A stretch of DNA of 32,000 nucleotides from Delftia acidovorans NBRC 14950 (GCF_001598795.1 NZ_BCZP01000002.1:330001-362000); one strand, 5' to 3'. Positions 11,105 through 30,453 are shown, counted from the first letter of the stretch. The notes: a model not told the origin generated them from the letters alone. Numbers and translations: made by a program.

Positions 11105-11688
11105 CAGCAGGCGCGCAGAAGCTGACCTTGCGTCAATGGGCCCTTCTTGGTGGGATCGCCGTCCTCTTGGTTGTTCCACTGTTACTCCTGGGAAGCTGGA
11201 TTTATTCCAAGCACCAATGGGCCCAGGAACAACTGGGCACACTGGAGCCGCGCTACGCGAGGCTTGCCGGCATGCAGGGGCAGACGGAGGAAATTCAGGA
11301 AGCGCTGAAGAGGATCGAGTCCACCAAGGCTCTGCACATCTACCCGGCAGAGCAGGACAGCACTCAGACTGGCAATGCACTTCAGCAACGCTTGCGGACC
11401 GTCTTGGACAAAGCGGGACTCTCCGTGGTCAGCAGCCAAGTGCGTCCTACCTCTGAATCAGGTGAATCTGATCAGGGTCCTTATGAACGCATTTCCGTGT
11501 CGATGACGGCAGAGGGCGAATGGTCTGCCATCCAATTGGCCATCATGTCATTACCCGAAGTTACGCCCACCGTGTGGCTCGATGATCTGCAACTGAATCT
11601 GCTGGGCAATCTGGAAAGCAACAACCTCAGAGTGCCGCCCAAGATCAGCGCGCAGTTTGTTTTCAGCATTCTTCGGAGCAAGCCGTGA
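11101..11688 (+). CDS. gspM: GspM-like protein
   Basis: ATGA overlap with gspL. 195 aa with one N-terminal TM (WALLGGIAVLLVVPLLLLGSWI). The size, topology and position match GspM. I did not recognise strong sequence motifs. Confidence 0.6.
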   Translation: MTAGAQKLTLRQWALLGGIAVLLVVPLLLLGSWIYSKHQWAQEQLGTLEPRYARLAGMQGQTEEIQEALKRIESTKALHIYPAEQDSTQTGNALQQRLRTVLDKAGLSVVSSQVRPTSESGESDQGPYERISVSMTAEGEWSAIQLAIMSLPEVTPTVWLDDLQLNLLGNLESNNLRVPPKISAQFVFSILRSKP

Positions 11689-15369: not shown

Positions 15370-15675
15370 GGCGGCTATGGATCTGGCGCGCCGTGCGGGC
15401 TGGCGTCAGGCCAAAGGTTGGTAGCGTTCTCCGGGCATGCCTCATGCTCGGTATGGACGAAGCCAAAAGTCGGGCAGGGTAGGCGCTGGAAGCAATGTTT
15501 GCCATAATGCGCCGTCCCTGATCTGGTGCTCGCTAGGGAAGTGTTGTTTTTTTTCAAAACAAGGCTTGGGCGCCTCCGAAAAGCGGTATGGGGGCATGAC
15601 CGGCTGTGCTACGATTCCCTGGCGATCAATCGTGGTGGTTGCAACTACCTTATCTTTTTACTGGAGATAGTTCTT

Positions 15676-17184
15676 ATGAAGAAAAATGTTCTGGCCCTGA
15701 GCATTGCTGCCATGGTTGGTGGCCTGGGCTTCGCTGGCGCTGCGTCCGCACAATCGTTCCAAGTGAACGAAAGCGGCACAGGCCACATCCTGGTGGTGCC
15801 CTACTACACCGCCCAGAACGGCAACATGTCCGTGTTCCACCTGACCAACACCGACACCATCCGTGGTAAGGCTGTGAAGGTGCGTTTCCGCGGTGCTTCG
15901 AACTCCGACGACGTGCTTGACTTCCAAGTCTTCATGTCGCCTGGTGACGTGTGGACCGCTGCTGTGACGGCTGACGCCGCTGGCAAGGCCCAGCTGGTGA
16001 CTGCAGACAACACCTGCACGCTGCCCGCTATCGCCAAGAACACGCCTGTTCCGTTCGTGACCGATCGTCTGGCTCGTCAAGGCTGGACTGACGCGGACAA
16101 GGCTGCTCAGACTCGTGAAGGCTACGTTGAAATCCTCAACATGGCCGACATCTCGAATCTGAACCCTGCTGCTTCGTCCTTGTACAAGGCCACGAAGCAC
16201 GCGAACGGCGTTGCTCCTTGCACCTCCTCGGTCCTGCAAGACACGCTGCTGGGCTACCCCGCCATGACTTCGCAGAACGAACTGTCCGCGCCCACCGCGA
16301 CGCTGACCGGTTCGTGGTATGTGATCAACGTGGCTCAGTCCACGACGTTCTCTGGCGCCGCTCCCGCTCTGGTGGGCAATGCTCCTACACGCGTCGTGTT
16401 CTCGCCCCAAGTTGAAGGCGAAACCACGTTCAAGACGTCTGACCCGCTGATGGTTGCTGGCACTATCAAGGCTCAGCACTATGACGTGCCTGACCTGTCG
16501 ACGCCTTACTTCGCCAGCCAATCGCTGACGAGCCAGACCGACGCCGACACCAATGCTACGAACCTGACGAATGCTCTGGGTCGTAACACCATCATGAACC
16601 AGTACGCAACGGATCTCAGCATCTCTGCTAAGACCGACTGGGTGTTCTCGATGCCTACCCGCCGCTACACTGTGGCTGCTAACTATGCATCGACGGCCAC
16701 GAACTATGCTGGTCAGCTGAATGTGTCTGCCACTGGCACGCCTACGACTGCTGAACTGAACGCTTACACGTACATCAACAGCGCTGTGACCGGCAACATC
16801 TTCTCGACAGGTGCCAAGGTTTCCGCCAATGACCAAGGTCAGCTGTGCGTGACGGCTTCCAAGCAAGAGTTCTACGACCGTGAAGAAAACGTGCAGTCCA
16901 GCGGCGCGATCTTCTCGCCCGGCACGACCAAGACGGCCAAGCTGTGCGGTGAAGTCAGCGTGCTGTCCTTCACGTCCGATGCTTCGGCTCTGGGCGCTGC
17001 TGTGGCACGTCAGACCGTGGCTGCTCCCTACACTAACGGTTGGGGCACCATCGGCTTCGGTACGGACCGCGCTCCCGTCCTGGGCGCTGCGTTCCTGAAG
17101 CTGACCAACCCCCAAGCCGTTCCTGGCACCGTGGGTACGTACGGCATCACCTGGCCCCACGCTTACGGCTCTGCCGCTCAGTAA
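15676..17184 (+). CDS. Abundant-type secreted/surface protein of unknown family; candidate T2SS cargo
   Basis: ATG 15676 is preceded by GGAGA. Sec signal MKKNVLALSIAAMVGGLGFAGAASA|QSF. The protein is rich in Ala/Thr/Ser/Asn/Gly and has 4 Cys. Codon usage shifts to GCT/GGT/CGT/TTC/AAC, unlike its neighbours. I recognised no domain by eye. Confidence 0.85.
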   Translation: MKKNVLALSIAAMVGGLGFAGAASAQSFQVNESGTGHILVVPYYTAQNGNMSVFHLTNTDTIRGKAVKVRFRGASNSDDVLDFQVFMSPGDVWTAAVTADAAGKAQLVTADNTCTLPAIAKNTPVPFVTDRLARQGWTDADKAAQTREGYVEILNMADISNLNPAASSLYKATKHANGVAPCTSSVLQDTLLGYPAMTSQNELSAPTATLTGSWYVINVAQSTTFSGAAPALVGNAPTRVVFSPQVEGETTFKTSDPLMVAGTIKAQHYDVPDLSTPYFASQSLTSQTDADTNATNLTNALGRNTIMNQYATDLSISAKTDWVFSMPTRRYTVAANYASTATNYAGQLNVSATGTPTTAELNAYTYINSAVTGNIFSTGAKVSANDQGQLCVTASKQEFYDREENVQSSGAIFSPGTTKTAKLCGEVSVLSFTSDASALGAAVARQTVAAPYTNGWGTIGFGTDRAPVLGAAFLKLTNPQAVPGTVGTYGITWPHAYGSAAQ

Positions 17185-18375: not shown

Positions 18376-19176
18376 ATGTACTCTTTACTCGGCGAATGCC
18401 GCGCGCTGTGGCAGGCTCGCAGCCTGCTGTGGGTGATGACCCGGCGCGAAGTGGCTGCCCGCCACGCAGGCACGGCCGCGGGCGTGCTCTGGCCCTATCT
18501 GCAGCCGCTGCTCACCGTGGCGGCCTACTACCTCGTGTTCGACGTGGTGTTCTCGATGCGCCTTGGCGACAACGCACCCACGCATGCCGTGGGCGCGTTT
18601 CTTGTTGTGGGCGCCTTGCCGTGGATGGCGTTTTGCGACGCTACGGCACGTGGCATGAACAGTCTGGTCGAGGCGGGTGGCATTCTGCAAAAGAACCCGT
18701 TGCCGCCAGTGCTGTTTCCCATGCGTGCGGTACTGGCCAGCAGTGTGATCTTCGGACCCTTGTTGTTGCTGGTGGCCTTGGCTTATCTGCCCCAGCACGG
18801 CTTGACCTGGTCGCTCGTGGCACTCATCCCCCTGTTGCTGGGCCAGCTGCTGCTGTGCGCCCTGCTGGCTTATGCGCTGGCTATTCTGACGGCGGCACTG
18901 CGCGATGTGGGGCAGCTTGTGACCTTCTTTCTGTCCGTCGGTATCTATCTCTCGCCCATTCTTTTTCCGCTGGCCTTGTTTCCCGAGCGCTGGCGCTGGG
19001 TGCTATGGGCCAATCCCATGACGGCGTTGGTTCTTGGCTACCAGAATGTGCTGCTGCAGGGGCTGTGGCCTCAAATGGCGGTCTGGGCGGCTTTGGGCAT
19101 CTGGATTCTGGTTTTGGCTGTGCTGCTCAATGGCTTGGTGCGACGCAGCCGTGATCAACTGGTGGACTGGCTATGA
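18376..19176 (+). CDS. wzm: ABC-2 type polysaccharide export permease (Wzm)
   Basis: 266 aa and polytopic. The N-terminal LWQARSLLWVMTRREVAARHAGTAAGVLWPYLQPLL is typical of O-antigen/teichoic ABC-2 permeases. There is a 4-nt overlap with wzt. Confidence 0.9.
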   Translation: MYSLLGECRALWQARSLLWVMTRREVAARHAGTAAGVLWPYLQPLLTVAAYYLVFDVVFSMRLGDNAPTHAVGAFLVVGALPWMAFCDATARGMNSLVEAGGILQKNPLPPVLFPMRAVLASSVIFGPLLLLVALAYLPQHGLTWSLVALIPLLLGQLLLCALLAYALAILTAALRDVGQLVTFFLSVGIYLSPILFPLALFPERWRWVLWANPMTALVLGYQNVLLQGLWPQMAVWAALGIWILVLAVLLNGLVRRSRDQLVDWL

Positions 19177-20453
19177 ACGCCAAGCATGTCGAATTGCCTG
19201 ATGACCTGGTACTGCGTGTGCGCAATCTGGGCAAGGAATACAAACTTTATCCCTCGCCGCGAGCGCGCTTCAAGGCCTTGCTGACCGGTGTTGCCACGCA
19301 CCGAAGCCATTGGGCATTGCGGGATGTGTCATTCGAATTGCGCCGAGGCCAGTGCATTGGTGTGATTGGCGACAACGGTGCAGGCAAGAGCTCGCTGCTC
19401 AAGCTGCTTGCTGGCACCTTGCAGCCCAGTTGCGGGCAAATAGAGCGTGTGGGTCGGGTCACGGCCATTCTGGAGTTGGGCGCGGGATTTCACCCTGATT
19501 TCAGCGGACGCGACAATCTGTATTTCGGTGGCAGCCTGATTGGTATCTCCCCTGAGCGCATGCGTGAGCTGGAGCCCGAAATCGCAGCCTTTGCGGAGTT
19601 GGGCGAAGCACTGGAGCGGCCGGTCAAGACCTACTCTTCGGGGATGGCGGTGCGCCTGGCGTTTGCACTGGTGACGGCCGTGCAGCCCGATGTGCTGATC
19701 ATTGACGAGGCGCTCGCTGTAGGCGACCAGCATTTCCAGAAGAAGTGCATTGAGCGCATCATGGCCTTCCGCAACAGCGGCTGCACCATCCTGTTTTGTT
19801 CCCATAGCCCTTATCACATCCGCCATCTTTGCGATGCAGCCCTGTGGCTGCGCGGCGGGCATGTGGCGCAGTTTGGTGCGACCGAGCCAGTGCTGGCCGC
19901 CTACGATGCACATACCCGCGAGCGCCAGGAGCGCGAGCAGAGGGCTTTGTGCGGCGAGATGCTGCCTGCTGAAGTGGAGCCCGCTGTGCCAGCGCCTGCT
20001 GCGGATGAAGTGCCTCCCGCGCCGGTCGCTGCCGTGGACAGCGGCACAGCCTGCATCCTGTCCGTGGATGTGAAGGATCTGGCTGAACCTGTGGGGGATC
20101 AGCCAGGGTTGCTTCAGAGCCAGGATCTGGTTGTGACCATTACCGCGAGAGGACGTGGCAACGAGCGGCCGCACATCGGCTTCATGATCGAGCAGTCCAA
20201 GGGCGTGGGCATTACTTCGCTGGCAACGCATGAGGATGGTGCAGCCCCGCGGCAATTGCCAGACGGAAGCTGGCAGACCGTGCTGACCTTTCCCGAGTTG
20301 CCTCTGCACAGCGGAGACTATGTGATCAGCGCCTTCCTGTTCGATGAAACCGGGCTGGCCGTCTATGACGAATGGTTCCAGTTCCTGCACCTGCGCTTTA
20401 TTTTCCCCAAGCCCCTGCCTGGACTGGTGCGCCTGCCCCACCACTGGAGCTGA
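19173..20453 (+). CDS. wzt: Polysaccharide ABC exporter ATP-binding protein (Wzt) with a C-terminal carbohydrate-binding domain
   Basis: Walker A GDNGAGKSS, signature YSSGM and Walker B LIIDEA. An Ala/Pro linker is followed by a ~135-aa beta-rich C-terminal domain (residues ~292-426) of Wzt_C type. Confidence 0.9.
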   Translation: MNAKHVELPDDLVLRVRNLGKEYKLYPSPRARFKALLTGVATHRSHWALRDVSFELRRGQCIGVIGDNGAGKSSLLKLLAGTLQPSCGQIERVGRVTAILELGAGFHPDFSGRDNLYFGGSLIGISPERMRELEPEIAAFAELGEALERPVKTYSSGMAVRLAFALVTAVQPDVLIIDEALAVGDQHFQKKCIERIMAFRNSGCTILFCSHSPYHIRHLCDAALWLRGGHVAQFGATEPVLAAYDAHTRERQEREQRALCGEMLPAEVEPAVPAPAADEVPPAPVAAVDSGTACILSVDVKDLAEPVGDQPGLLQSQDLVVTITARGRGNERPHIGFMIEQSKGVGITSLATHEDGAAPRQLPDGSWQTVLTFPELPLHSGDYVISAFLFDETGLAVYDEWFQFLHLRFIFPKPLPGLVRLPHHWS

Positions 20454-20507: not shown

Positions 20508-21404
20508 ATGACATCTGACAATTCTTCTACTCCCATCAGCGATGGGCAGCGTTTGCTGAATGAAGCCCTGCAATTGCTGGCAAGCGGCGACCGGGCTGGT
20601 GCAGCACAGGTCCTAGCCCGTGCCCGCGAAATGGACGACAGCCTGTTGGAGGCGCATTCCCTGATCGAGGCCAATGGTCTGGTGGGTTCGTTTTCCAACA
20701 TGACGGGACTCGATTGCCGGATTTCTGCGCAGGACGATATCTTCGGCTTCTTCCGTGGTCACCCTTCCAGCGTCAATCCCCTGCGCGACTACTTCGCCGA
20801 CGGTTGGCGCACGCTGTCGGAACTGATGCTGCTGCTTGAGGCTGTGGACAAGCCTTTGCTGCGCACGGCCAGCGTCCTGGAGTTCGCCAGCGGTCACGGC
20901 CGCTTTACGCGGCACCTGGTCAAGGCGCTGGGGGCGGAACGGGTCACCGTCTCGGACATCGTGGTCGATGCTGTGGATTTTTCGCAGCAGACCTTCGGCG
21001 TGAAGGGCTTTGCTTCGGCCAGCGTGCCGGAGCAGGTACGCTGGCCGCAGCAGTACGAGCTGGTGTTCGTGCTCTCGCTGTTCAGCCATCTGCCGCGCTC
21101 GACCTGGACGCGCTGGCTGCAGGTGCTGCGCGATGCGGTGGCTCCTGGCGGGTTGCTGGTTTTCAGCACGCACGGCATGAAGGCCGCAAATTTCGACAGC
21201 GTGAAGCTGGATGACGAGGGATTTTTCTTTGCCCCGTCCAGCGAGTCGAATGCCATCGATGCCAATGAGTATGGAACGGCGTTCACTTCCGAGCAATTCG
21301 TCCTGGACCGCATTGCCGAAACCTGGGGCACCGATGCGCTGCGCCATCGATCACTTGTGCATTTCTGGAACCACCAGGATGCCTATGTGCTTCAGCGGCT
21401 GTGA
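20508..21404 (+). CDS. Class I SAM-dependent methyltransferase
   Basis: Motif I VLEFASGHGRFTRHL, post-I VSDIV and motif LVFVLSLFSHL...GGLLVFSTHG. 298 aa. Confidence 0.8.
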   Translation: MTSDNSSTPISDGQRLLNEALQLLASGDRAGAAQVLARAREMDDSLLEAHSLIEANGLVGSFSNMTGLDCRISAQDDIFGFFRGHPSSVNPLRDYFADGWRTLSELMLLLEAVDKPLLRTASVLEFASGHGRFTRHLVKALGAERVTVSDIVVDAVDFSQQTFGVKGFASASVPEQVRWPQQYELVFVLSLFSHLPRSTWTRWLQVLRDAVAPGGLLVFSTHGMKAANFDSVKLDDEGFFFAPSSESNAIDANEYGTAFTSEQFVLDRIAETWGTDALRHRSLVHFWNHQDAYVLQRL

Positions 21405-21446
21405 GCGTGTTGACAGGGTTGTAGAGAGAACAGAGAGGACGATTGC

Positions 21447-22307
21447 ATGAGTTGGATGCTGCGTTTGCAGGAACGGCTGTTGGGCCTGGCGCCATGGGAC
21501 GCCGGTAAGATCACCGATGAGTGGTTTCGTGCGCATTTCAACTATGCAGCGGATCTGGCCCATGACTGGCTCGGACGGTCGTTGGACCTGTCCAAGGCCA
21601 GGTTGCTGAATTTCGGATGTGGCGATGGCATCACCGATCTGGCTTTGGTACTGCGCCATGGCGCAACCTCCATCCATGGCATCGATATCCGTCAGGAGTA
21701 CGCCAAGCTGCCCCGCATTGCACGCGAGCAGTTGGGCATGTCGCGCATTCCCGCTGCGCTGAGCTTCGAGACCATCGTGCCGAATTCGCCATTGGCCGGC
21801 CGGCATGCGAACTATGACGGATTGCTCAGCTGGTCCACCTTCGAGCATGTGCAGCGCGACAAGGTGCTGCCGATCCTGTCCGACCTGCATGCCTGCCTGC
21901 GCTCGGGAGGCGTGTTCTTCCTGCAAATCGAGCCCTTGTTTCATTCTCCCTGGGGCTCGCACCTGCGCCGCTACGACGATGTGCCCTGGCACCACTTGCT
22001 GGCGTCGGAGGAGGAGTTGTGGAGCATCATCGAAAAGCATGAAGGTCCGCTGGACGCCGCCGAGGTGGACTTCGGCTTTGCTGATTTCGGTGTCGATGGC
22101 TACAAGCGCTTTGTCTTCAAGGAGTACCAGGCGCTGAACCGGTTGACGGCAGACGAGCTGGTCGATATCGCTCGTCAGGCCGGCTTTGAGGTGTTGCGCG
22201 AGGAGCGGCGCCAGGTGGACATGGCCATTCCCGAGGCGCTGGCGGGGCGCTACCCCGAGGAGTGGCTGCGCAACAACGAGATTTTGCTGTTGCTGGGCAA
22301 GAGCTGA
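21447..22307 (+). CDS. Class I SAM-dependent methyltransferase
   Basis: Motif I LLNFGCGDGITDLAL, followed by GIDI and LLSWSTFEHV...GGVFFLQIEP. 286 aa. Confidence 0.8.
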   Translation: MSWMLRLQERLLGLAPWDAGKITDEWFRAHFNYAADLAHDWLGRSLDLSKARLLNFGCGDGITDLALVLRHGATSIHGIDIRQEYAKLPRIAREQLGMSRIPAALSFETIVPNSPLAGRHANYDGLLSWSTFEHVQRDKVLPILSDLHACLRSGGVFFLQIEPLFHSPWGSHLRRYDDVPWHHLLASEEELWSIIEKHEGPLDAAEVDFGFADFGVDGYKRFVFKEYQALNRLTADELVDIARQAGFEVLREERRQVDMAIPEALAGRYPEEWLRNNEILLLLGKS

Positions 22308-22314
22308 CGAAGCC

Positions 22315-23358
22315 ATGCAGGAGCTGGCCCCCACGATCTCTTCACCCGTGCGGCCTGCATATTCCAATGGCTTTGATGCACTGCGCATAGCCGCTGCATC
22401 TGCAGTCATTTACAGCCATCATTTCCATATCACGGGCACCAGACCGCCATCGTGGCTGCATGCGGACATGGTGGGCGGCGTGGCAGTGATGACTTTCTTC
22501 ACGATCAGCGGCTTTCTTGTCACGCTGAGTTGGCTGTGTGACCCTCGGGCGGCGGCCTTCATGGCCAAGCGTCTGTTGCGGTTGTGGCCGGGCATGCTGG
22601 TGGCTGTTGTGGCTGGCGTGCTGCTGTTCGGCCCGGTATTTACTTCATTGCCACTGAAGGAGTTCTGGCTTCATCCGCAGACCCTGGATCACTGGCGCAA
22701 TCTGCTGCTGATCAAGGACTACGCCTTCATGCCGGGCGTGTTTTCTTCCAATCCGCTGCCAGGGTTGATGAATGGCCCTTTGTGGACCATCCCCATCGAG
22801 CTGATGTGCTACGTGGTGCTTGCTGCACTGGGCATATTGGGAGTGCTGCGGTCCAGGCTTCTTGCCAGCCTGGCTGCAGCTGGATATCTGGTCTTTTTCC
22901 TGACACAGCGCAATGCCGATTTGGCTGGAACCATGTTTCATTGGTTCGAGTATCCGGCCTATTTCGCCTATGGCTCGCTGATCGCGCTATTGCAGCCTGC
23001 CTTTGCTGCCCATGGTCGAAACTTGCTGTTGATCCTGGCGCCTGTGGCTGGGGTGCTTTTCTTTGGCTTGAAGCTGGAGCACTCTGCCGGCCTGCTGCTG
23101 CTGCCGCCGCTGCTCATCTATTTGGGTTCCATGCGTTCTAGGGTGTTTTCCGGGTTGCATCGACTCGGAGATCCTTCTTATGGTGTCTACGTGCTGGGCT
23201 GTCCCATCCAGCAGGCAGTTCAGGCGCTGTGGCCTCAGCTGCCATTCCACTCCAGTCTGGCGCTTGCATGGCTGCTTGCGCTGGCTGCTGGCTATGCCTC
23301 CTGGCACTTGGTCGAGTCGCCGATGCTGCGGCTCAAACACTTGGTGTACCGCACCTAG
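22315..23358 (+). CDS. Acyltransferase-3 family membrane O-acyltransferase
   Basis: ATG 22315 in the frame of ORF 22186..23358. GFDALRIAAASAVIYSHHF, FFTISGFLV and the C-terminal SWHLVESPMLRLK are typical of the acyltransferase_3 family (OafA/WecH-like). Polytopic. Confidence 0.85.
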   Translation: MQELAPTISSPVRPAYSNGFDALRIAAASAVIYSHHFHITGTRPPSWLHADMVGGVAVMTFFTISGFLVTLSWLCDPRAAAFMAKRLLRLWPGMLVAVVAGVLLFGPVFTSLPLKEFWLHPQTLDHWRNLLLIKDYAFMPGVFSSNPLPGLMNGPLWTIPIELMCYVVLAALGILGVLRSRLLASLAAAGYLVFFLTQRNADLAGTMFHWFEYPAYFAYGSLIALLQPAFAAHGRNLLLILAPVAGVLFFGLKLEHSAGLLLLPPLLIYLGSMRSRVFSGLHRLGDPSYGVYVLGCPIQQAVQALWPQLPFHSSLALAWLLALAAGYASWHLVESPMLRLKHLVYRT

Positions 23359-23369
23359 AAGGGAGTGCC

Positions 23370-24512
23370 ATGCGCAGCGTTGAAGAGAGGGGGAACCGCT
23401 TTGACATGCTGCGCTTGACGGCGGCGCTTGCAGTGTTTGTTGCGCACGGAGAGTTTCTTTACCGCCTGCGTCTTGCCGAACCCTTTGCCGGCCACAGCCT
23501 GGGGTCGCTTGCGGTCTATGTATTCTTCTTCATGAGCGGGTATCTGGTATGCCAGAGCTGGATGCGCGAGCCGGTCTGGCATGCCTTCTGGCTGAGGCGG
23601 CTGATGCGGATTTTTCCGGGCCTGATCATGGCCGTGGTTTTCTCGGTTTTCGTCATTGGCTGGGCGATGACCTCGCTTGATTCGCTGCAGTACTGGCAGT
23701 CACCGCAAACCTGGAGTCATCTGATCAACAACATGACAGGGCAGGCCACGGTTCAGATACTGCCGGGCGTATTCGAATCCAATCCCTTTGCCTATACGGT
23801 CAACGGGTCCCTGTGGACGTTGCGGTATGAGCTGGCGATGTACCTTGTGCTGGCCACCTTGGCATGGCTTGCAAGAGGCAAGCGCTGGATCCATCCCCTC
23901 ATGGCTGGCGTACTGGCGATCTTGTGGCAGATGGCCAGAGTCAAGGGGTGGGACCAGGGCCTGGATGCCATCCACACCCCGCTGGTCGATATGTTCCGCT
24001 GGCGGGACTTCTGTGGATTTGGTGTTCCCTTCTTTCTGGGAAGCACGATGGCTGCCTATGGCATACGCCATCGCACATGGATGGCTGCAGTCGCGCTGGT
24101 GCTGGCTGTATGCGCATTGCTCACCGCCAGCACCTGGATGCGCCAGGTGGCAGTATGGGGATTGGTGGCCTGCGCAAGTTTTTATCTTGCCCATGCAGGC
24201 CATGTGGCCGCAAGCCACCGTTGGCGCACCGATCTTTCTTATGGCGTCTACATCTACGCCTTCCCCGTCCAGCAGGCCATGACGGCCATTTGCCTGCGTG
24301 AGGGCTGGTCATTGGGCATCTGCATGCTGCTGTCGCTTGCCTTGACATTGGGCCTGGCCTTGATGTCATGGTATGGCGTGGAACGGCCCTGCATCCGGAT
24401 GGCGCAGCGATGGCTGGCGTTGCCTGGGCGGCGCCTAGGCCTGCAGCCAATTCTTGACCCGGCGTTGCCAGTGCGCGGGAATGCGCCTGGCCACGCCGCG
24501 CAGGATGGGTAG
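23370..24512 (+). CDS. Acyltransferase-3 family membrane O-acyltransferase (second paralogue)
   Basis: ATG 23370 is preceded by AAGGGAG. RFDMLRLTAALAVFVAHG, FFFMSGYLV and SWYGVERPCIRM are present. The last 78 nt overlap the 3' end of the convergent gene. Confidence 0.85.
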   Translation: MRSVEERGNRFDMLRLTAALAVFVAHGEFLYRLRLAEPFAGHSLGSLAVYVFFFMSGYLVCQSWMREPVWHAFWLRRLMRIFPGLIMAVVFSVFVIGWAMTSLDSLQYWQSPQTWSHLINNMTGQATVQILPGVFESNPFAYTVNGSLWTLRYELAMYLVLATLAWLARGKRWIHPLMAGVLAILWQMARVKGWDQGLDAIHTPLVDMFRWRDFCGFGVPFFLGSTMAAYGIRHRTWMAAVALVLAVCALLTASTWMRQVAVWGLVACASFYLAHAGHVAASHRWRTDLSYGVYIYAFPVQQAMTAICLREGWSLGICMLLSLALTLGLALMSWYGVERPCIRMAQRWLALPGRRLGLQPILDPALPVRGNAPGHAAQDG

Positions 24513-27500
24513 CGAGCGTAGATGGGCCAGCAGGATCAAGGCCCCAGATCTTGCCGCATGGTCCTGGCGTTGCAGGCGATGTGTGGCCAGAAAGGCCGCA
24601 TCCAGCGGCTGAAGCAGGGCCTGATCGCGCGGCTGCAGCCCCTGGAGATAACCGTCGCCATAGAAAGTGGTTCCCGGCTGGGCGGCCGCACTCCCTGTCG
24701 CGGTGGGTTGCTGCGGTGGCTGCCCTTCAATGAAGTGGCGTTCGCGTATTTGCGCGAAGAAGTCCAGCCATTGGGCGGCGCTGGCGTCCCAGGGCATGAC
24801 CCAGGACCAGTCGCGGCCCGCCAGCCTTTCGGGAAAGGCCCCTATGTCGGGCGCGACGATCGGCAGCCCGGCGGCCAGGCAGGCGCTCAGGGTGTAGCTG
24901 TAAGTCTCCGGCCATTGGGCAGGGAACCAGGCCAGGTCGGGCTGCAACCACTGCAGCAGAGCAGGCAGTTCTTCTTCCTTGTAGCCGCCGTGCACGGTCA
25001 GGCGTGCGCGTGGCTGGGTCTGCAGGCTGCGGTAGCCATAGCCGAGCAGATGGAATTCCACAGGAGCTCCCCGCTTGGCGGCTTCGATCGCCACGGCTTC
25101 CAGTACGTCGGCGCCCTTGATGGCGCTCATGGCTCCCAGTACGACGATCTTGAGCGGGGCCGTGGCGGCCAGCGGGTGTGCCACCGGGGCCGGCAACTGT
25201 GCCGGCAGGTCGGTGTGGGCAACCGCCTGGACGCGGGCACCGGGCACGAAACCGGAGATCCGGCTGGCCGTGTCCTGGCTGGGGGCCAGCACATGGCGCG
25301 CGTTGTTCAGCAGCAGCGCATTGCGGTGGCGCCACTGGGCCACGGTGCCGGCATAGGGGGCTGTGTCCGTGGGTTCGCAGCAGCCGCACTCGCCCGCGCG
25401 GGGCGGCACGACGTAGCGGTTGTCGATGCCGGTCAGCGAGATGTTCTTGCAGTAGGTATAGAAATCATGGGCCGTGAAGTCATGGGCCGCACCCAGACGG
25501 GCGGGAAGGTCCAGGATGGCTTCGCTATGGCCCAGGAGATGCTGGTAGTGCACATGCACCACGCCCAGCTGGCGCAGGGCCTGTACCAGCTCCTCCATCT
25601 GGTCGTTGATGCGGAAGGCGAGCTCGAATGCTTCCTTCTCCTCGGCACGGCGCAGGACCACGACGCCACCGGCGGCCGGGGACAGCATGAGGAACAACGC
25701 CTTGCCTTGCAGGAACTGCGCCAGTTCGCGCACATGGCGCACCGTGCCGCCCGCCCGGTCGTGGAGCACGGCCAGCACCACAGGCTGGTGTGCGGCCTCT
25801 GCCTGCAGGCGTGCCACGTCCAGCGCAAGGCGTGCGGTGCGCGCAGGGTCGGCCTGGACGAAGGCCATGACATCGGCTTCGTAGCGCGGATGCAGGCGGC
25901 GCAGGGTTTCCATGGCGGCACGTTCGCGCGGGCTCTTGCTTTCTCCGAAGCTCACGCCGCCAGTGTGCAGCACGAAGGTGTCCAGCAAATGCAGGTTGCG
26001 CCAGCCAGCGGCTGCGGCACGCTGGCAGAAGTCGTTTTCTTCGCCATAGCCCTTGCCGAAGTGCTCGGTATCGAACAGGCCGACGGCGTTCAGGCTGTCG
26101 CGGCGGATGTACATGCAAAAGCCCACGCCGGTGGGCACGTCCACCACCTGGCCGGGGTTGGTGCGCGCGCACAGTGCGTCGATGGCGGCGGTGTCCATGC
26201 CGGGCGGCAGATCGTTGCCCTCGCAAAAGCGCGGGTAGCTGCAGATGGTGGCGTTGTTGGAGAACGGAGTGACGGAGGCGATGCGTGCATCGCCGTAGGC
26301 AGCCTGGCGGATGCGGTCCAGCCAGTCATTGGCGACCACGGTGTCGCTGTTGAGCAGCAGCACGTCATGGGCGGTGTTCAGCGCCATGCCCCGGTTGACG
26401 GTACCGACGAAGCCGAGGTTCTCCTCGTTCTCCAGCAGGGTGATGCGGGGCTCCTGTGCCGCCTTCTCGCGCAGCCAGGCCGTGACTTCGGGCTCCGGGC
26501 TGGCATCGTTGATGACCACCAGTTGCCAGTGCGTGCGGCAGGGGCTGGCCAGCACGGATTCGATGCAGTTGCGTGTGTCGTCCAGCCCCCGGTACACGGG
26601 CACGATCACATCGACGGGCTGCTGGGGCATCGGCTGCGGTACGGGGGTATGGAGGACAGGGGCAGGCACGGGCGTGCGGCCCAGCAGGCGGTCAATGCGC
26701 ATCTTGGCGTGGACGAGGGGGCGCGTGGCCCGGAAGACGGTGGAGTTCTCTATGTCGCGCAGGTGTTGTTCCAGCCGTGCGAAGTCCCGCTGTACGCGGG
26801 TGGCTTCCTGTTGCCAGATGGCGCGCTCCTTGCTCTGTGACTGGTGGCTGTCTTCCAGGAGGGCATTGCGGTGCTGCAGCCTATGGATCGCAGCGCTGTG
26901 CTCTTCCAGTTGCTGGACATCCTGCGCATGCTGCTGCTCAAGCAGCATGCGCTGTGTGTTCCACTGATCCTGCAGATCATTGGCCCGGCTGCGCTCCTGC
27001 GCGATCTGTCGTTCAAGCGGCTGCACGGCGCCAGCCAGCGCCAGATAGTCGGCCGACATGGGCCATCCCATCTCGATCTCCAGCGAGGCGCCACGCAGCG
27101 CAGCTAGGGTTTCTGCAGGAATGGGCAGTTCGAACCAAGGGTCATCGCCGGTCAGCAGCAGCATCAGCGAGAAGGCGCCTGCCGGATGAAGTCCATTCCA
27201 CACGAGCTGATGATGCGGGCGTTGCCCCAGCAAGGCGGCGTCCGAATCCTCGGGCAGCCATTGCCAGACGACGGCGCCTTGCGCATCGAACAAGGCCAGC
27301 CGGTGCAGATGTACGAAGCCCGGCCGGTCGGCCAAGTCCAGGCGCAGATGGCTCAGCGAAGTGTTGTGGTCGGGCAGTGCAAAGCGCAATGTCTGACGTG
27401 CCTGGCCAATGATGCCGGTGGTGGAGAGCTTGCTCTCTTCCTCATAGCGGCCAGCGCGCGCCATGTAGAGCTGGGCCGTGAACAGTGCATGCCCTTGGGG

Positions 27501-28226
27501 GTAGTTCAGTGGCGGCTCGATGGGCAGCGCCTGGGCGGCGGGCGCCGCACTGGCGATGAACTGGTAGGCCAGTGCATCGGGCGTGGCCAGAAGGTGGCGG
27601 GCAACGGCAGGGGGCAGGCTGTCGTAGGCGACGCGGAATTCGGATTCGGGAAGAGCGCGCTCGATAGTGTCGATGTCGTCCACCTGCCAGCCTTGCTCGG
27701 CCAGAAAGCGCGACAGCGAGCGCCGCGTGAAAAAGCGCAGGTGGGTGCGGTCCAGCAGGCCTTCTTCGCGGTAGCGGAATTCGCCGTGCAGCAGTTCTGC
27801 CACCAGGCCGCTGTAGCCTGCATTGGGCACGGAGATCAGCAGACGGCCTTCGGGTGTCAGCCGCTTGCGGCAGGCGGCCAGAATGCGCTCGGGCTGGCGC
27901 AGGTGCTCGAGCACGTCGGCGCAGACGATGTAGTCATAGCGCGCGTCGCCGAAGAGCTGGTCCAGGTCGCAGTCCTCCAGGTCGGCCACATGGACATGGC
28001 GGTAGAAGGGCGCGGCATGGCGGGCCTCTTCCTGGCTCAGGGTGACGCCGTCGCAGACGCATTGCTTGTGCTCGGCGAGGAAGGCGCCCAGCGCGCCGCT
28101 GCCGCAGCCCAGATCCAGTATGTGCGCCTGGGCGCGGACATGGCCGGCCAGCACGGACAGCGACGTGCGCTCGTTCAGATCGACGGTGCGCAGGTAGACG
28201 TGGGGATCGGGAATGGGTGTGGTCAT
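24435..28226 (-). CDS. Multidomain O-polysaccharide assembly protein: SAM methyltransferase, beta-rich domain, coiled coil, GT2 and a GT-B glycosyltransferase
   Basis: I chose the internal ATG (CAT 28224-28226, MTTPIPDPHVY...). The 63 upstream codons of ORF 24435..28415 are Arg-rich with no domain. MT motif I is ILDLGCGSGALG. The coiled coil is Q/E/R/L-rich. GT2 motifs are VDVIVPVYRG...VVINDASP...LENEENLGFVGTVNRG...LLNSDT...GEENDFC. The GT-B C-terminal half has KIVVLG...FHLLGYG...YSYTLSACLAAGLPIVAPDIGAFPER. Confidence 0.88.
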   Translation of the reverse strand: MTTPIPDPHVYLRTVDLNERTSLSVLAGHVRAQAHILDLGCGSGALGAFLAEHKQCVCDGVTLSQEEARHAAPFYRHVHVADLEDCDLDQLFGDARYDYIVCADVLEHLRQPERILAACRKRLTPEGRLLISVPNAGYSGLVAELLHGEFRYREEGLLDRTHLRFFTRRSLSRFLAEQGWQVDDIDTIERALPESEFRVAYDSLPPAVARHLLATPDALAYQFIASAAPAAQALPIEPPLNYPQGHALFTAQLYMARAGRYEEESKLSTTGIIGQARQTLRFALPDHNTSLSHLRLDLADRPGFVHLHRLALFDAQGAVVWQWLPEDSDAALLGQRPHHQLVWNGLHPAGAFSLMLLLTGDDPWFELPIPAETLAALRGASLEIEMGWPMSADYLALAGAVQPLERQIAQERSRANDLQDQWNTQRMLLEQQHAQDVQQLEEHSAAIHRLQHRNALLEDSHQSQSKERAIWQQEATRVQRDFARLEQHLRDIENSTVFRATRPLVHAKMRIDRLLGRTPVPAPVLHTPVPQPMPQQPVDVIVPVYRGLDDTRNCIESVLASPCRTHWQLVVINDASPEPEVTAWLREKAAQEPRITLLENEENLGFVGTVNRGMALNTAHDVLLLNSDTVVANDWLDRIRQAAYGDARIASVTPFSNNATICSYPRFCEGNDLPPGMDTAAIDALCARTNPGQVVDVPTGVGFCMYIRRDSLNAVGLFDTEHFGKGYGEENDFCQRAAAAGWRNLHLLDTFVLHTGGVSFGESKSPRERAAMETLRRLHPRYEADVMAFVQADPARTARLALDVARLQAEAAHQPVVLAVLHDRAGGTVRHVRELAQFLQGKALFLMLSPAAGGVVVLRRAEEKEAFELAFRINDQMEELVQALRQLGVVHVHYQHLLGHSEAILDLPARLGAAHDFTAHDFYTYCKNISLTGIDNRYVVPPRAGECGCCEPTDTAPYAGTVAQWRHRNALLLNNARHVLAPSQDTASRISGFVPGARVQAVAHTDLPAQLPAPVAHPLAATAPLKIVVLGAMSAIKGADVLEAVAIEAAKRGAPVEFHLLGYGYRSLQTQPRARLTVHGGYKEEELPALLQWLQPDLAWFPAQWPETYSYTLSACLAAGLPIVAPDIGAFPERLAGRDWSWVMPWDASAAQWLDFFAQIRERHFIEGQPPQQPTATGSAAAQPGTTFYGDGYLQGLQPRDQALLQPLDAAFLATHRLQRQDHAARSGALILLAHLRSLPILRGVARRIPAHWQRRVKNWLQA
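26736..27020 (-). other. Predicted ~95-residue coiled-coil segment inside the multidomain protein
   Basis: LERQIAQERSRANDLQDQWNTQRMLLEQQHAQDVQQLEEHSAAIHRLQHRNALLEDSHQSQSKERAIWQQEATRVQRDFARLEQHLRDIENS has no Pro or Gly and shows heptad-like spacing of L/I/V/A. Confidence 0.6.
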
Positions 28227-28570
28227 AGGAAATGAGGTGCCAGGCGCGGTCCGGGCAGGGATCGATCGCCCGTCATATTCATCTGCGCCAGTCGACCGTG
28301 GCCGGTCCGCAGAGAGCAGCAGGGCACGCCCACGCCAGGCGCAAAAAATCCCGGAAGTCCGGGCGGCAGATTGTCGCGCATCATAATCCCGGCCACCGCA
28401 GTGATTGCTTGGCATGGCGGGTTAATGACATTTTGTGCGGCTGTTGCATTTCCTTGCATCACGGCATACCCGCTGACGCCTTCCGGGCGCCTTCCGCTGA
28501 ATACTCGGAGCCGCCGTTTTTTCGGCGCAGGTATGCGGGTTGGAATTTGAAGATCTGAAGGGCGGCATTG

Positions 28571-29344
28571 ATGGGTTCATCGTTGGTCGTGTCGGTGGTG
28601 AGCCACGGACATGGCGCTCATATACAGAGGCTGCTTGAATGCCTGGGTTCGGCGCGCCTTGCGCCGATGTCCCGCGTGGTGCTGACGCTCAATATTCCCG
28701 AACCGGAGCCCCGGGCTCCAGCGACCGGCTGGCCTTTTGTCCTGGAGATACGGCGCAATGCGCAACCCCTGGGTTTTGGCTGCAACCACAACCGGGCGCT
28801 GGCGAATGCCCGGGAGGCGTTTGTCTGCGTGATCAATCCTGACGTGTACTGGGGAGCGCAGGAAGAGCCGCTGCAAGAGCTTCTGGCGCTGGCGGCCCGG
28901 CCGGGGTTGGCGCTGGCCTATCCCCCGCAGATCGGCGAAGACGGCACGCTGCAGGATTCCGAGCGGGAGCTGCCATCTTTCTGGAATTTGCTGCGACGCA
29001 AGCTGCACGGGCGTGTGGAGCAGCGTGTGGAATGGGTCAATGCGGCTTGCCTGGTGCTGGGCCGGGATAGCTGGATGCGCCTGCGTGGGTTTGACGAAGG
29101 TTTCTATATGTATTGTGAGGATGTGGATCTGTGCCTTCGCCTGCGGGTGCTGGGCGGAGAGCTTCGGCGCGGTGAGTTGCCTGTCGTCCATGCGGGCCAG
29201 AGGGCGAGCCGGCGCAGCCTGCGCCATGGCGCATGGCACGTGGCCAGCCTGCTGCGGCTGTGGAGCCGTCCGGCCTACCGCAAGGCCCGAGCCTTGCCGC
29301 AGGCAGCGCCCTCGCTGCGCAGCCTGCATGGGGAGCCATCGTGA
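28571..29344 (+). CDS. Family 2 glycosyltransferase
   Basis: SLVVSVVSHGHGAHIQRLLECL, NHNRALANA, VINPDVYW and GFDEGFYMYCEDVDLCLRL are GT2 (rhamnosyltransferase-like) motifs. It is divergent from the large minus-strand gene. Confidence 0.82.
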   Translation: MGSSLVVSVVSHGHGAHIQRLLECLGSARLAPMSRVVLTLNIPEPEPRAPATGWPFVLEIRRNAQPLGFGCNHNRALANAREAFVCVINPDVYWGAQEEPLQELLALAARPGLALAYPPQIGEDGTLQDSERELPSFWNLLRRKLHGRVEQRVEWVNAACLVLGRDSWMRLRGFDEGFYMYCEDVDLCLRLRVLGGELRRGELPVVHAGQRASRRSLRHGAWHVASLLRLWSRPAYRKARALPQAAPSLRSLHGEPS

Positions 29345-30453
29345 TCTGGATGGCGGTATTGGCCTTCATGGTGTCTTGCACCGGCTGTGCACTGCTGGTG
29401 CGCTGGGCCGGGCGGTCCTCGACGTCCTCTTACGGATACGACAAGCCGCAGCGCTTTCACATCGGCGAGGTGCCCCGGCTTGGGGGCGTGCCGATGTACC
29501 TCGGACTGGCTGTCTCCTGGGGGGTGGGCACCTGGCTGAGCATGCGCGGAGATCCCTCCTCGCTGCGCATGCAGTTGTGGGTTGTCGTGTGCTTGGCCGC
29601 CATGCTGCCGGCCGTGGTCGGGGGGATCATCGAGGATGTATCGCAGCGCCTGAGCGTGCGTTACCGGCTGGTGCTCACCCTGCTGAGCGCCGTGCTGGCG
29701 GTTTTGCTGTGCGGCCTCACTGTGCCCCGGCTCGGCTGGCCCTGGCTGGAGCAGGCACTGGGTCCGGCCATGCCCTGGCTGGGCATGGGCCTGGCCGTCC
29801 TGGCCCTGACGGGCCTGCCCCATGCCTTCAACATCATCGACGGCTACAACGGGCTGGCCGGCATGGTGGCCACCATCATCTGCCTGGCGCTGGCCCACGT
29901 GGCACTGCAGGTGGGGGACCGGACCCTGGCCGCCATGCTGGTGACGCTGGCCGCCGCCACCTGCGGCTTCCTGGTCTGGAACTACCCGCGCGGCATGATG
30001 TTTGCAGGCGACGGCGGGGCCTATGTCTGGGGGCTGGCGATTGCCCTGGCCAGCATTGCCTTGGTGCAGCGCAATTCCGCAGTCTCGCCATGGTTTCCCA
30101 TGCTGCTGCTGATCTATCCGGTCTGGGAGACGGTGTTCTCCATCTACCGCAAGCTGATGCGCGGCATGTCGCCGGGCATGGCGGATGCCCTGCATTTCCA
30201 CCAGTTGATCTACCGGCGCATCGTGCGCGGTGTGTTCGACGACGATCTGGCACGGCGCATGCTGCGCCGCAATAACCGGACTTCACCCTACCTGTGGGCC
30301 TTCACGCTGCTGACCGTGGTGCCGGCATTGCTGTTTTGGAGCAACACGCCCGTTCTGGTGGGTTTTTGCCTTCTGTTCGTGGTCAGCTATGTGATCGCCT
30401 ATCTGGCCATCGTGCGCTTCAAGCTGCCGGGCTGGATGCAGAACAATGGATGA
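29341..30453 (+). CDS. Polyprenyl-phosphate HexNAc-1-phosphate transferase (WecA/WbpL/MraY family, GT4), initiating enzyme
   Basis: GTG 29341 makes a GTGA overlap with the upstream GT2; ATG 29350 is the alternative start. Polytopic. It carries the HAFNIIDGYNGLAG motif (NxxDGxDGLA-type) and FAGDGGAY. Confidence 0.85.
   Translation: MIWMAVLAFMVSCTGCALLVRWAGRSSTSSYGYDKPQRFHIGEVPRLGGVPMYLGLAVSWGVGTWLSMRGDPSSLRMQLWVVVCLAAMLPAVVGGIIEDVSQRLSVRYRLVLTLLSAVLAVLLCGLTVPRLGWPWLEQALGPAMPWLGMGLAVLALTGLPHAFNIIDGYNGLAGMVATIICLALAHVALQVGDRTLAAMLVTLAAATCGFLVWNYPRGMMFAGDGGAYVWGLAIALASIALVQRNSAVSPWFPMLLLIYPVWETVFSIYRKLMRGMSPGMADALHFHQLIYRRIVRGVFDDDLARRMLRRNNRTSPYLWAFTLLTVVPALLFWSNTPVLVGFCLLFVVSYVIAYLAIVRFKLPGWMQNNG

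Follow-up and report, generated by a model that had tools for sequence, protein, structure and literature searches.

The window analysed here, a stretch of 32,000 nucleotides from Delftia acidovorans NBRC 14950, contains genes for the two components of an ABC-type glycan exporter, Wzm and Wzt (Table 1). Wzm is syntenic in the Comamonadaceae. The carbohydrate-binding module (CBM) at the C-terminus of Wzt spans approximately residues 290-408 (Wzt_C, E 2.1e-7, or 2.8e-8 with the C-terminal part alone), and its presence supports the ABC-transporter setting that the original prediction had assumed for the large gene of the locus. Two stand-alone class I methyltransferases (MTs), MTa and MTb, and two membrane acyltransferases are encoded on the same strand as the exporter. 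The acyltransferases occupy a variable accessory slot; they are missing from the other Comamonadaceae loci, and their place is taken elsewhere by a TPR-MT or a DUF7657/DUF7654 protein.

The large gene lies on the opposite strand, and divergent from it is the gene of a small GT-A-like glycosyltransferase (GT), a candidate adapter GT. This enzyme matches an MftF-like GT in NCBIfam (E 5e-11) and is kept as a neighbour in 9/13 Comamonadaceae loci (L001-L008 and L013) with 41-57% identity. The WecA/WbpL-like initiator also matches the NCBIfam model ECA_wecA (E 3.9e-21, below the family cut-off), and its true start is probably downstream of 29233. Besides the GT2 and GT4 modules of the large protein, Pfam and NCBIfam identified no polymerising GT in the locus. 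The locus occupies one and the same site (gspD ... argB) and keeps its core genes across the Comamonadaceae, where it is shared by Delftia, Acidovorax, Paracidovorax, Alicycliphilus, Xylophilus, Verminephrobacter, Comamonas and Ottowia.

Table 1. Genes of the locus and modules of the large protein, with coordinates counted from the first nucleotide of the window.
Feature	Coordinates	Strand	Basis
Wzm, ABC-2 permease of glycan exporter	18376..19176	+	Pfam ABC2_membrane; NCBIfam Wzm/KpsM-type, weak
Wzt, ABC ATPase with C-terminal CBM	19173..20453	+	Pfam ABC_tran and Wzt_C
Stand-alone class I MTs (MTa 20508-21404, MTb 21447-22307)	20508..22307	+	Pfam
Two Acyl_transf_3 membrane acyltransferases	ORFs 22186-23358, 23229-24512	+	Pfam
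Large multi-module gene, 1263 aa	24438..28226	-	ORF listing; stop codon 24435-24437
C-terminal cationic amphipathic segment, residues 1246-1263 (ARRIPAHWQRRVKNWLQA)	24438..24491	-	muH 0.61, net charge +5
GT4-type (GT-B fold) module, residues 826-1140	24807..25751	-	Pfam matches
GT2 (GT-A fold) module, residues 537-767	25926..26618	-	Pfam Glycos_transf_2 E 7.6e-15; Glyco_tranf_2_3 E 5e-9
Pro-rich linker, residues 518-537	26616..26675	-	Sequence TPVPAPVLHTPVPQPMPQQP; 8 Pro in 20 residues
End-of-coil junction, residues 494-517	26676..26747	-	NSTVFRATRPL motif, then cationic amphipathic helix
Coiled-coil spacer, putative molecular ruler, residues 392-493	26748..27053	-	AF2, heptad periodicity
Uncharacterised beta-sandwich, residues 248-387	27066..27485	-	AF2 domain-only model
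Class I SAM-dependent MT, residues 22-229	27540..28163	-	Pfam and AF2 Rossmann fold
Small GT-A-like glycosyltransferase, candidate adapter GT	28568..29344	+	Pfam Glycos_transf_2 weak, E 0.0023
WecA/WbpL-like polyprenyl-phosphate HexNAc-1-phosphate transferase, initiator	29233..30453	+	Pfam Glycos_transf_4 E 1.9e-32

Modules of the large protein

The original prediction described a fusion gene of 1263 aa starting at 28226, and this gene model holds. The longest ORF begins at an alternative upstream ATG at 28415 and would encode 1326 aa. The ATG at 28226 is supported because close Delftia homologues (97-99% identity) are all 1263 aa long and because GC3 rises from ~0.55-0.7 to ~0.9 precisely at this codon. 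No clear Shine-Dalgarno sequence was seen for the large gene. Residues are numbered from this start; the ORF-track numbers used originally are higher by 63. Using Pfam, AF2 and direct reading of the sequence, every predicted domain was recovered where it had been placed. The order is MT, beta-sandwich, heptad helix, cationic amphipathic junction, Pro-rich linker, GT2, GT4 (GT-B) and cationic C-terminus.

The MT head matches Pfam Methyltransf_23 at residues 31-183 (E 2.7e-19) as well as Methyltransf_12, Methyltransf_11 and Methyltransf_25. Motif I, LDLGCGSG (residues 37-44, nt 28095-28118), is intact. This motif and the SAM-binding residues are invariant in the wide family (743 50%-identity clusters at E<1e-30), as are residues G40, G44, D59, D104, E107 and H108. 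The closest solved structure is 3cc8, a putative MT of B. cereus (phmmer 1.9e-25, Foldseek 1.9e-16). Comparison with WbdD O8 revealed generic class I similarity only (hhalign 95.8% over 106 columns; BLASTP E 0.094), and WbdD was absent from the best 60 PDB profile matches and the top 50 Foldseek matches of the MT head.

The region ahead of the coil had been described as beta-rich and unassigned, and that description was borne out. Modelled alone with AF2, residues 248-387 form a sandwich of ~11 strands (pLDDT 86.7, pTM 0.80). It has no Pfam match at E<=5, a Foldseek search against the PDB returned nothing below E 0.04, and a PDB profile search was also blank. Nor was a carbohydrate-binding family matched by Pfam, Foldseek, hhalign or PDB profiles. 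The domain carries two conserved motifs, one of LRLDPADRPG type and the other WPMSxDY, and adjoins the MT in nearly all of 150 representatives of the MT subfamily. Two candidate identities were ruled out. Kinship with Wzt_C received an hhalign probability of 0.2%, and for a kinase between MT and coil there was no Pfam or NCBIfam match, the ~150 residues folding as a beta-sandwich instead.

The spacer is a single continuous helix in the AF2 monomer model (residues 392-493, helix pLDDT 52-76), with a length of ~13-15 nm if fully extended. The range originally given for the coil, 26736-27020, corresponds to residues 403-497, as claimed. Residues 392-495 include one Pro and one Gly, along with 18 Q, 13 A, 12 L, 11 R and 10 E. 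Power at a period of 3.5 residues is 0.97, compared with 0.15 ± 0.14 in shuffled sequences, and was matched by 0.1% of 2000 shuffles.

The spacer is also the fastest-diverging segment of the protein. Among 120 orthologues it falls into 11 length classes of 80-130 residues, and the parts that flank it are nearly constant in length. The length differences (0, 4, 7, 11, 14, 15, 18, 29, 36, 43 and 50) are 0, 1 or 4 modulo 7 only, in related sequences that represent few independent events. Spacers of 87, 98 and 130 residues are found at the same syntenic locus. Spacer length therefore appears, from these alignments, to vary in steps that a coiled coil can accommodate. The protein probably oligomerises via the coil, which would then work as a chain-length ruler.

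The helix ends in a motif that is kept in 120/120 close homologues and that lies C-terminally in stand-alone relatives. The pattern NSxx[FW]RxT at the helix end is common to E. coli O8 and O9 WbdD, with NSTVFRATRPL in Delftia, NSRSWRITQPL in WbdD O8 and RSRSWRMT in O9. Residues 499-517 of the junction have a muH of 0.59 and a net charge of +4, and the junction is a candidate docking element for the membrane or a partner. The C-terminal segment exceeds the 99th percentile of the whole protein in muH, and its residues are nearly invariant among homologues.

Of all the modules GT2 is the best conserved, Delftia and Acidovorax being 82-85% identical in it, and it contains the motifs VINDAS at residues 571-576 and LNSDT at residues 625-629. 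The GT4 module matches Pfam Glyco_trans_1_4 (E 1.4e-6), Glyco_transf_4 (E 0.0024) and Glycos_transf_1 (E 0.0031). The two modules presumably have polymerase activity.

Comparison with characterised systems

Capped-glycan systems are marked out by a Wzt with a CBM and a terminator with a coiled coil (PMC11231755). The original prediction had regarded the Delftia combination as uncharacterised. This does not stand for MT-GT fusions as such, of which WsaE and K. pneumoniae O7 ORF6 are characterised examples, but for the exact module set (an MT-only head, this beta-sandwich, a coil, GT2 and GT4) no characterised protein was found in the literature.

A characterised fusion with the layout MT(-kinase)/CBM-like/coiled-coil/two-GT2 is ORF6 of K. 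pneumoniae O7 (PMC11231755; Kelly et al. 2024, J Biol Chem). By description, the Delftia protein resembles it in carrying an N-terminal MT-containing putative terminator, a putative coiled-coil ruler and two C-terminal GTs of presumed polymerase function on one polypeptide, in an ABC-transporter pathway with a CBM-bearing Wzt. ORF6 has a beta-rich Ig-like/CBM-type domain directly before its coil, and the Delftia beta-sandwich is likened to it by position. ORF6 differs in that it installs methyl-phosphate and that a cryptic kinase of 223 aa separates its MT from its Ig-like domain, whereas only the ~150-aa beta-sandwich, with no kinase-like fold, lies between MT and coil in Delftia. Furthermore, the ORF6 polymerase consists of two GT2 modules rather than GT2 and GT4, and ORF6 needs an additional stand-alone ribofuranosyltransferase.

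WsaE of G. stearothermophilus NRS 2004/3a, which caps an S-layer glycan, joins an N-terminal 2-O-methyltransferase to two rhamnosyltransferase domains; its MT makes a methyl cap thought to end chain growth, and methylation in vitro is independent of chain length (PMC2943079). Because of this independence, an MT-GT fusion alone does not prove a ruler. The WsaE work is reportedly that of Steiner et al. 2008. As described, WsaE shares with the Delftia protein an N-terminal O-methyltransferase followed by two GT domains, and wzm/wzt neighbours, which lie directly upstream in the WsaE locus. It differs in that it needs a third GT, WsaF, and that its own two are rhamnosyltransferases. The layout of WsaE seems to be matched more closely by coil-less MT-GT2-GT4 relatives in the Chromatiaceae than by the Delftia protein. 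One of them, in Allochromatium, fuses the MT directly to GT2 and GT4 and lacks the beta domain as well as the coil, and in Chitinimonas the same modules are split in a WbdD/WbdA-like manner. Judging from these sequences, split, ruler-fused and ruler-less arrangements of the same modules occur in nature.

The WbdD of E. coli O8 and K. pneumoniae O5 terminates chains by methylation only. It combines an N-terminal class I MT with a coiled coil and a membrane-proximal C-terminal region and works with a CBM-bearing Wzt, all features to which the Delftia protein and its locus can be likened. The end-of-coil motif extends the likeness (LHNSRSWRITQPL in O8, IENSTVFRATRPL in Delftia). In contrast, WbdD O8 is without a beta-sandwich between MT and coil, and it recruits its polymerase, WbdA, as a second protein. 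In the WbdD of E. coli O9a and K. pneumoniae O3 the coiled coil is an experimentally validated ruler; the catalytic head is N-terminal and an amphipathic helix is C-terminal. The O9 WbdD of E. coli HS has the end-of-coil motif IHRSRSWRMT. The O9a protein differs in its bifunctional kinase-methyltransferase head, its methyl-phosphate cap and its separate polymerase.

WbbB of Raoultella terrigena and K. pneumoniae O12 unites terminator, coiled-coil ruler and C-terminal two-GT polymerase in a single polypeptide, the layout proposed here for Delftia. Its terminator is a GT99 beta-Kdo transferase whereas Delftia has an MT, and its polymerase modules are GT102/GT103 rather than GT2/GT4. No sequence relationship to WbbB was detected in PDB searches with the Delftia protein. 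A GT99 beta-Kdo terminator in the Delftia protein was ruled out: the N-terminal module is an MT, and Pfam, NCBIfam and the PDB gave no GT99-like match.

Proposed mechanism and alternatives

The best explanation of the large protein, and one that we consider fairly probable, is that it acts as polymerase, terminator and ruler. The logic originally put forward, a terminator-type MT held across a coiled coil from a two-GT polymerase, is supported by the CBM-bearing Wzt, the cationic junction, the WbdD-type motif and the stepwise spacer lengths. The protein would be located in the cytoplasm, associated with the membrane, and would assemble a surface glycan of O-polysaccharide type that depends on an ABC transporter. 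The WecA-like enzyme would prime undecaprenyl phosphate and the small GT-A enzyme would then add the adapter sugar. The GT2 and GT4 modules, held at the membrane by the cationic amphipathic junction and the cationic C-terminus, would alternate in extending the chain at the membrane surface. An oligomeric coiled coil of ~100 residues would project the MT and the beta-sandwich ~13-15 nm from the polymerase, placing the fused MT, the presumed chain terminator, at the N-terminal, membrane-distal end. Only chains reaching the MT head would receive an O-methyl group at the non-reducing end, which would block further extension. The Wzt CBM would read this methyl cap, and the chain would then be exported. 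The searchable literature yielded no structure of an O-polysaccharide from Delftia or Acidovorax with which this could be compared.

The mechanism may be as proposed and yet serve a different product, a conserved "common" polysaccharide of the Comamonadaceae rather than a serotype-defining LPS O antigen. Such a glycan might be LPS-linked like the common antigen of P. aeruginosa or be carried on another anchor. Identity across the syntenic Comamonadaceae loci is 70-83% for GT2 and up to 84% for the Wzt CBM (in A. delafieldii), and the window contains neither sugar-nucleotide genes nor waaL. In A. oryzae RS-2 a strain-specific ABC O-PS cluster, equipped with an MT/coiled-coil terminator, is found apart from this locus (PMC11597636). 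Because the present locus keeps one chromosomal site across the family, and because A. oryzae has that separate cluster, the product may not be the serotype O antigen. On the other hand, ligation to lipid A-core is possible, the initiator is WecA-like as in O-antigen pathways, and the variable accessory slot and variable spacer look like antigenic diversification. We regard a common polysaccharide as possible, though on this evidence doubtful.

Another explanation is that the fused MT decorates internal repeats or the adapter, the coil serving for oligomerisation or as a scaffold while length is set otherwise, for example through a link between polymerisation and export. Modifying enzymes are plentiful in the locus, with two more MTs and two acyltransferases, the Allochromatium fusion has no coil, and ABC-transporter systems that lack a terminator exist, such as K. 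pneumoniae O1/O2 (PMC11231755). However, an internal decorator gains nothing from a distance of ~100 helical residues to the polymerase. The end-of-coil motif is common to true terminators, and the spacer changes in helix-compatible steps while the catalytic modules stay constant in length. Such a Wzt CBM has been described as a terminal-group reader; it is found here, and a Wzt C-terminal extension of at least 150 aa occurs in 41/42 loci, counted as those with this MT family within 10 kb of a wzt. A purely decorating MT is therefore unlikely.

Lastly, the stand-alone MTs could make the cap instead of, or alongside, the fused MT, which would then add one methyl or have no terminating chemistry. 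Three MT domains lie within one 12-kb locus, MTa and MTb are syntenic and 73-75% identical in A. delafieldii, and the terminal sugar might be methylated more than once. Terminal sugars with several methyl groups are present in other ABC-dependent O antigens, for example that of Rhizobium etli. We consider this quite improbable, since MTa and MTb show no coil or membrane-targeting element in their Pfam profile and are variably present (MTa only in Alicycliphilus L003, MTb only in P. avenae L004, neither in Ottowia L011/L012), while the fused MT and the Wzt C-terminal domain are retained in all of these. In Ottowia L011 Pfam matches none of the ORFs of at least 150 aa that lie between the large gene and wzt, and the locus contains no MTa/MTb homologue.

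The polymerase-terminator-ruler reading can be extended, tentatively and with more doubt than confidence, to the variation among homologues. The beta-sandwich might be a new glycan-binding module that recognises the chain end, and the spacer alleles (80-130 residues, a ~7 nm span) might set strain-specific modal lengths of a backbone shared across the Comamonadaceae. Beta-sandwich, coil and junction might then be an insertable cassette that makes the ruler-less MT-GT2-GT4 form of the Chromatiaceae length-controlled.

Because WsaE, K. pneumoniae O7 ORF6, WbbB and WbdD are close precedents, the Delftia protein represents no new principle but an uncharacterised variation on a strategy that E. coli and Klebsiella have already been shown to use. 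What is new here is the beta domain, the end-of-coil motif common to WbdD, the 11 spacer lengths and the three natural arrangements. Since coil-distance capping read by a Wzt CBM is already established, the gain would be one of breadth and not a new concept. If the proposed mechanism is true, a compact single gene would supply polymerase, terminator and ruler using the simplest possible cap, a methyl, and its modules could be used for the production of glycans of defined length. Its homologues, nearly identical in other respects, would offer a natural range of ruler lengths with which the ruler model could be tested outside the Enterobacteriaceae without protein engineering, and a widespread, unannotated beta-sandwich domain would acquire a role.

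Gene model and anatomy of the large protein

The longest ORF of the large gene extends from 24435 to 28415 on the minus strand (1326 aa), and a start at ATG 28226 yields 1263 aa. The ORF listing showed that the gene is real and that it lies on the minus strand. Close homologues in D. acidovorans, D. tsuruhatensis and related strains (97–99% identity) are all 1263 aa long, and GC3 climbs to about 0.9 at codon ATG 28226. Homologue length and the GC3 jump support this start and rule out the 1326-aa ORF from ATG 28415. The database name of these homologues is solely 'methyltransferase domain-containing protein'; they place the window in a Delftia-like member of the Comamonadaceae. The modules were found at the positions first assigned to them once the original residue numbers, which ran 63 too high, had been corrected.

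Features of the glycan locus and modules of the large protein
Feature	Window position	Residues	Detail
wzm	18376-19176
wzt	19173-20453		with Wzt_C carbohydrate-binding module (CBM)
MTa	20508-21404		stand-alone methyltransferase, between wzt and acyltransferases
MTb	21447-22307		stand-alone methyltransferase, between wzt and acyltransferases
Two acyltransferases	22186-24512		Acyl_transf_3; slot between MTb and large gene
Large gene	24438-28226		strand opposite to the other locus genes listed
Class I SAM methyltransferase (MT)		31-183	Pfam Methyltransf_23, E 2.7e-19
Pro-rich linker		518-537	8/20 Pro
GT2 module		537-767	Pfam, E 7.6e-15
GT4-type GT-B module		826-1140	Glyco_trans_1_4, E 1.4e-6
Small glycosyltransferase	28568-29344		GT-A-like
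Initiating transferase	29233-30453		WecA-like

An AlphaFold2 model of residues 1–520, built with 25 sequences (mean pLDDT 72), contains a Rossmann MT (22–229), a beta-rich domain with strands between 248 and 387, and a single unbroken helix (392–493) followed by a second helix (496–514). Q, A, L, R and E are abundant in residues 392–495, which include one Pro and one Gly. The 3.5-residue hydrophobic periodicity of the helix was matched by just 0.1% of 2000 shuffles, and its heptad pattern has one register shift near residues 413–420. Two amphipathic segments are strongly conserved, residues 499–517 (muH 0.59, net charge +4) and the C-terminal 18 residues (muH 0.61, net charge +5, >99th percentile of the large protein).

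The second acyltransferase ORF (plus strand, end 24512) and the large gene (minus strand, stop 24435–24437) are convergent and overlap at their 3' ends by 78 nt (24435–24512). Two antisense ORFs without a family match, 24522–26840 (plus, 772 aa) and 2897–5740 (minus, 947 aa), overlap real genes; the scarcity of stop codons in antisense frames of high-GC DNA most likely accounts for them.

The glycan locus and the natural arrangements of the modules

The glycan locus that contains the large gene is 12 kb long and lies between argB on one flank and ppiC with a type II secretion cluster on the opposite flank. The locus has no GT modules other than the GT2 and GT4 of the large protein, the small GT and the initiator, and for this reason we infer that GT2 and GT4 are the polymerase. 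No sugar-nucleotide genes or waaL were found in the locus. A syntenic locus occupies the same chromosomal site in Acidovorax, Paracidovorax avenae, Alicycliphilus, Verminephrobacter, Comamonas, Xylophilus and Ottowia. Wzm, Wzt with a C-terminal domain, the WecA-like enzyme and the large protein form the core that complete loci have in common. Nine of the 13 Comamonadaceae loci have the small GT gene, and the presence of the stand-alone methyltransferases varies.

The content of the slot between MTb and the large gene is also variable. It holds the two acyltransferases in the window and a TPR-methyltransferase in A. delafieldii (L001, 13769–15076). A DUF7657/DUF7654 protein of ~850–890 aa fills it in two Delftia-like loci with close relatives of the Delftia gene, L086 (4435–7116) and L087 (6440–8998), one of them a Logan metagenome contig. 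The type II secretion cluster (4133–14854) lies directly upstream of the glycan locus and comprises gspE, F, G and H, pseudopilins, and PilN-like, GspM-like and GspD genes; it likewise adjoins the glycan locus in Acidovorax. Between gspD and ppiC is a 552-aa ORF (15526–17184, plus strand) that has no Pfam or NCBIfam match and is kept at that position across the Comamonadaceae (31–50% identity by tblastn).

Three arrangements of the modules occur in nature. In Chitinimonas, wzm and wzt are accompanied by a stand-alone 493-aa MT/beta/coil protein and separate GTs, which is the layout of WbdD/WbdA. Besides Delftia, about 30 other 50%-identity clusters have the full fusion. In Allochromatium warmingii and Chromatium weissei a closely related MT runs straight into the same two GT modules, GT2 and GT4; beta domain and coil are both absent, and these genes adjoin wzm and a long wzt. 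Compared with these ruler-less proteins, Delftia residues about 232–535 (beta-sandwich, coil, junction and linker) read as an inserted cassette. The A. warmingii relative is a 1200-aa MT-GT2-GT4 protein (L037, 9995–13597, plus strand), and similar proteins occur in loci L034 and L035. In its last ~150 residues the second half of the GT-B module seems to be partly repeated, and the neighboring Wzt has a 210-aa C-terminal extension.

The beta-sandwich, the spacer and the end-of-coil motif

Because K. pneumoniae O7 ORF6 has a kinase hidden in an unannotated stretch between MT and coil, the corresponding Delftia region was examined for a kinase. A domain-only AF2 model (residues 225–405, 65 diverse sequences) is a confident beta-sandwich of about 11 strands (pLDDT 86.7, pTM 0.80). 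At ~150 aa it leaves no space for a kinase, which is thereby ruled out. Kinship with the Wzt CBM was also rejected (hhalign probability 0.2%). The domain had no Pfam match at E<=5, its family profile had no match in the PDB, and Foldseek against the PDB gave only weak jelly-roll-like resemblances (best E 0.04). Residues 1–520 were searched against 1.84 billion representatives, giving 743 clusters at E<1e-30, and in nearly all of the best 150 of these the MT and the beta domain are adjacent. The beta domain is thus an obligate partner of the Delftia-type MT subfamily. Its role may be to bind the end of the glycan, to cover the active site of the MT or to aid oligomerization. In two proteins of the representative library, P0161 and P0168, a ~400-aa N-terminal extension precedes the MT/beta unit, and the beta domain runs directly into the GT2 module with no coil.

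The end of the coil was compared with WbdD of E. coli IAI1 (O8, 425 aa) and E. coli HS (O9, 708 aa). The same short motif is present at this position in all three proteins: LHNSRSWRITQPL in O8, IHRSRSWRMTKGY in O9 and IENSTVFRATRPL in Delftia. It is shared even though the catalytic heads are unrelated or just generically similar; no specific MT homology to WbdD was found, the resemblance of the Delftia MT to those of O8 and O9 being of the generic class I kind only. All close homologues have the motif (120/120), and in nine stand-alone relatives found by motif scan it lies 13–23 residues from the C-terminus. We know of no earlier description of this shared motif. Written as [NR]SxS/V[WF]RxT, it occupies the membrane-proximal coil end at 26715–26747 in Delftia (residues 494–504), and in the E. 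coli O8 and O9 WbdD genes it falls within L084 (4457–5734, minus strand) and L085 (17966–20092, minus strand).

The distance from the end of the beta domain to the motif takes 11 values between 80 and 130 residues among 120 orthologues. Relative to the shortest spacer the excesses are 0, 4, 7, 11, 14, 15, 18, 29, 36, 43 and 50, which modulo 7 are solely 0, 1 or 4. Such steps are the ones that fit a coiled coil, which can take up whole heptads, stutters or hendecads, and skips. The pattern is only suggestive of coiled-coil-compatible increments, since the sequences are related and independent indel events few. Spacer alleles of 87, 98 and 130 residues were found in one and the same syntenic locus. 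The coil and the beta domain are the fastest-diverging parts; in the relative P0047 identity is 100% in the MT, 95% in GT2 and 91% in GT-B, against 72% in the beta domain and 52% in the coil.

Proposed mechanism and relation to known systems

In the published model for capped ABC-transporter glycans, a coiled coil carries the terminator at its distal end; its proximal end has an amphipathic helix that binds the membrane, the polymerase is either fused to that end or recruited by it, and the Wzt CBM exports capped chains only (PMC11231755; PMC3482155). Five observations fit this model: the CBM, the shared motif, the variable spacer, the three arrangements and the MT of Ottowia. In 42 loci with a Delftia-type MT within 10 kb of a wzt, 41 of the Wzt proteins have at least 150 residues past the ATPase domain. 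The Ottowia locus (L011) contains no homologues of MTa or MTb, and no Pfam family matches the ORFs of at least 150 aa that separate its large gene from wzt. Its Wzt nevertheless retains the C-terminal domain, which favors the fused MT as the probable maker of the exported mark.

We consider a polymerase combined with a methyl terminator and a coil ruler the probable mechanism as a whole. The WecA-like enzyme and the small GT would make an Und-PP-linked acceptor. Oligomerization of the large protein would be driven by the coil, and the junction helix and the C-terminal helix would tether the GT2/GT4 polymerase to the membrane as it extends the acceptor. The rise of a helix is about 1.5 Å per residue, and the coil would set the MT/beta head 13–15 nm from the polymerase. 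Only chains reaching the head would be O-methylated at the non-reducing end, a modification that would both halt extension and create the ligand for the Wzt CBM.

The product may be a conserved 'common' glycan rather than a serotype O antigen, a possible though somewhat doubtful reading that is compatible with the terminator mechanism. Synteny of the locus across the family speaks for it, as does A. oryzae, which has a separate ABC O-PS cluster that is strain-specific and encodes an MT/coiled-coil terminator of its own (PMC11597636). The literature searched gave nothing useful on O-polysaccharide structure in Delftia or Acidovorax. We think it unlikely that the MT decorates the glycan internally and that the coil serves just as a scaffold. 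That the cap is made by, or depends on, the stand-alone methyltransferases is still less likely, given the Ottowia locus.

The Delftia protein has the architecture of the coiled-coil terminator class. By analogy it would work as a single-protein terminator, ruler and polymerase like WbbB, with a methyl-only cap like that of WbdD O8. Compared by description, it is also like the single-protein terminator/ruler/polymerase K. pneumoniae O7 ORF6, and like WsaE in the fusion of an MT to two GTs. The missing GT99 module and the different GT families place it outside the WbbB family, and the lack of a kinase separates it from the O9a or O7 kinase-methyltransferase subtype. The exact module set is uncharacterized, as was originally claimed, but the novelty drawn from it was overstated given these four proteins. 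A bioinformatic census by Mann, Kimber and Whitfield in 2019 reportedly catalogued capped systems of the terminator/ruler type, so the existence of MT/coil/GT fusions is unsurprising to specialists. Passages in papers citing Mann et al. 2019 link Wzt CBMs to terminating groups.

The overall finding would be no surprise to a specialist. New here are the unannotated beta-sandwich, the shared end-of-coil motif, a natural series of spacer (putative ruler) lengths, and relatives that are split or lack the ruler. The beta-sandwich is itself worth solving. If the proposed mechanism is true, the 50-residue natural spacer range would correspond to about 7 nm of ruler, and the Delftia family lends itself well to a natural test of the ruler model.
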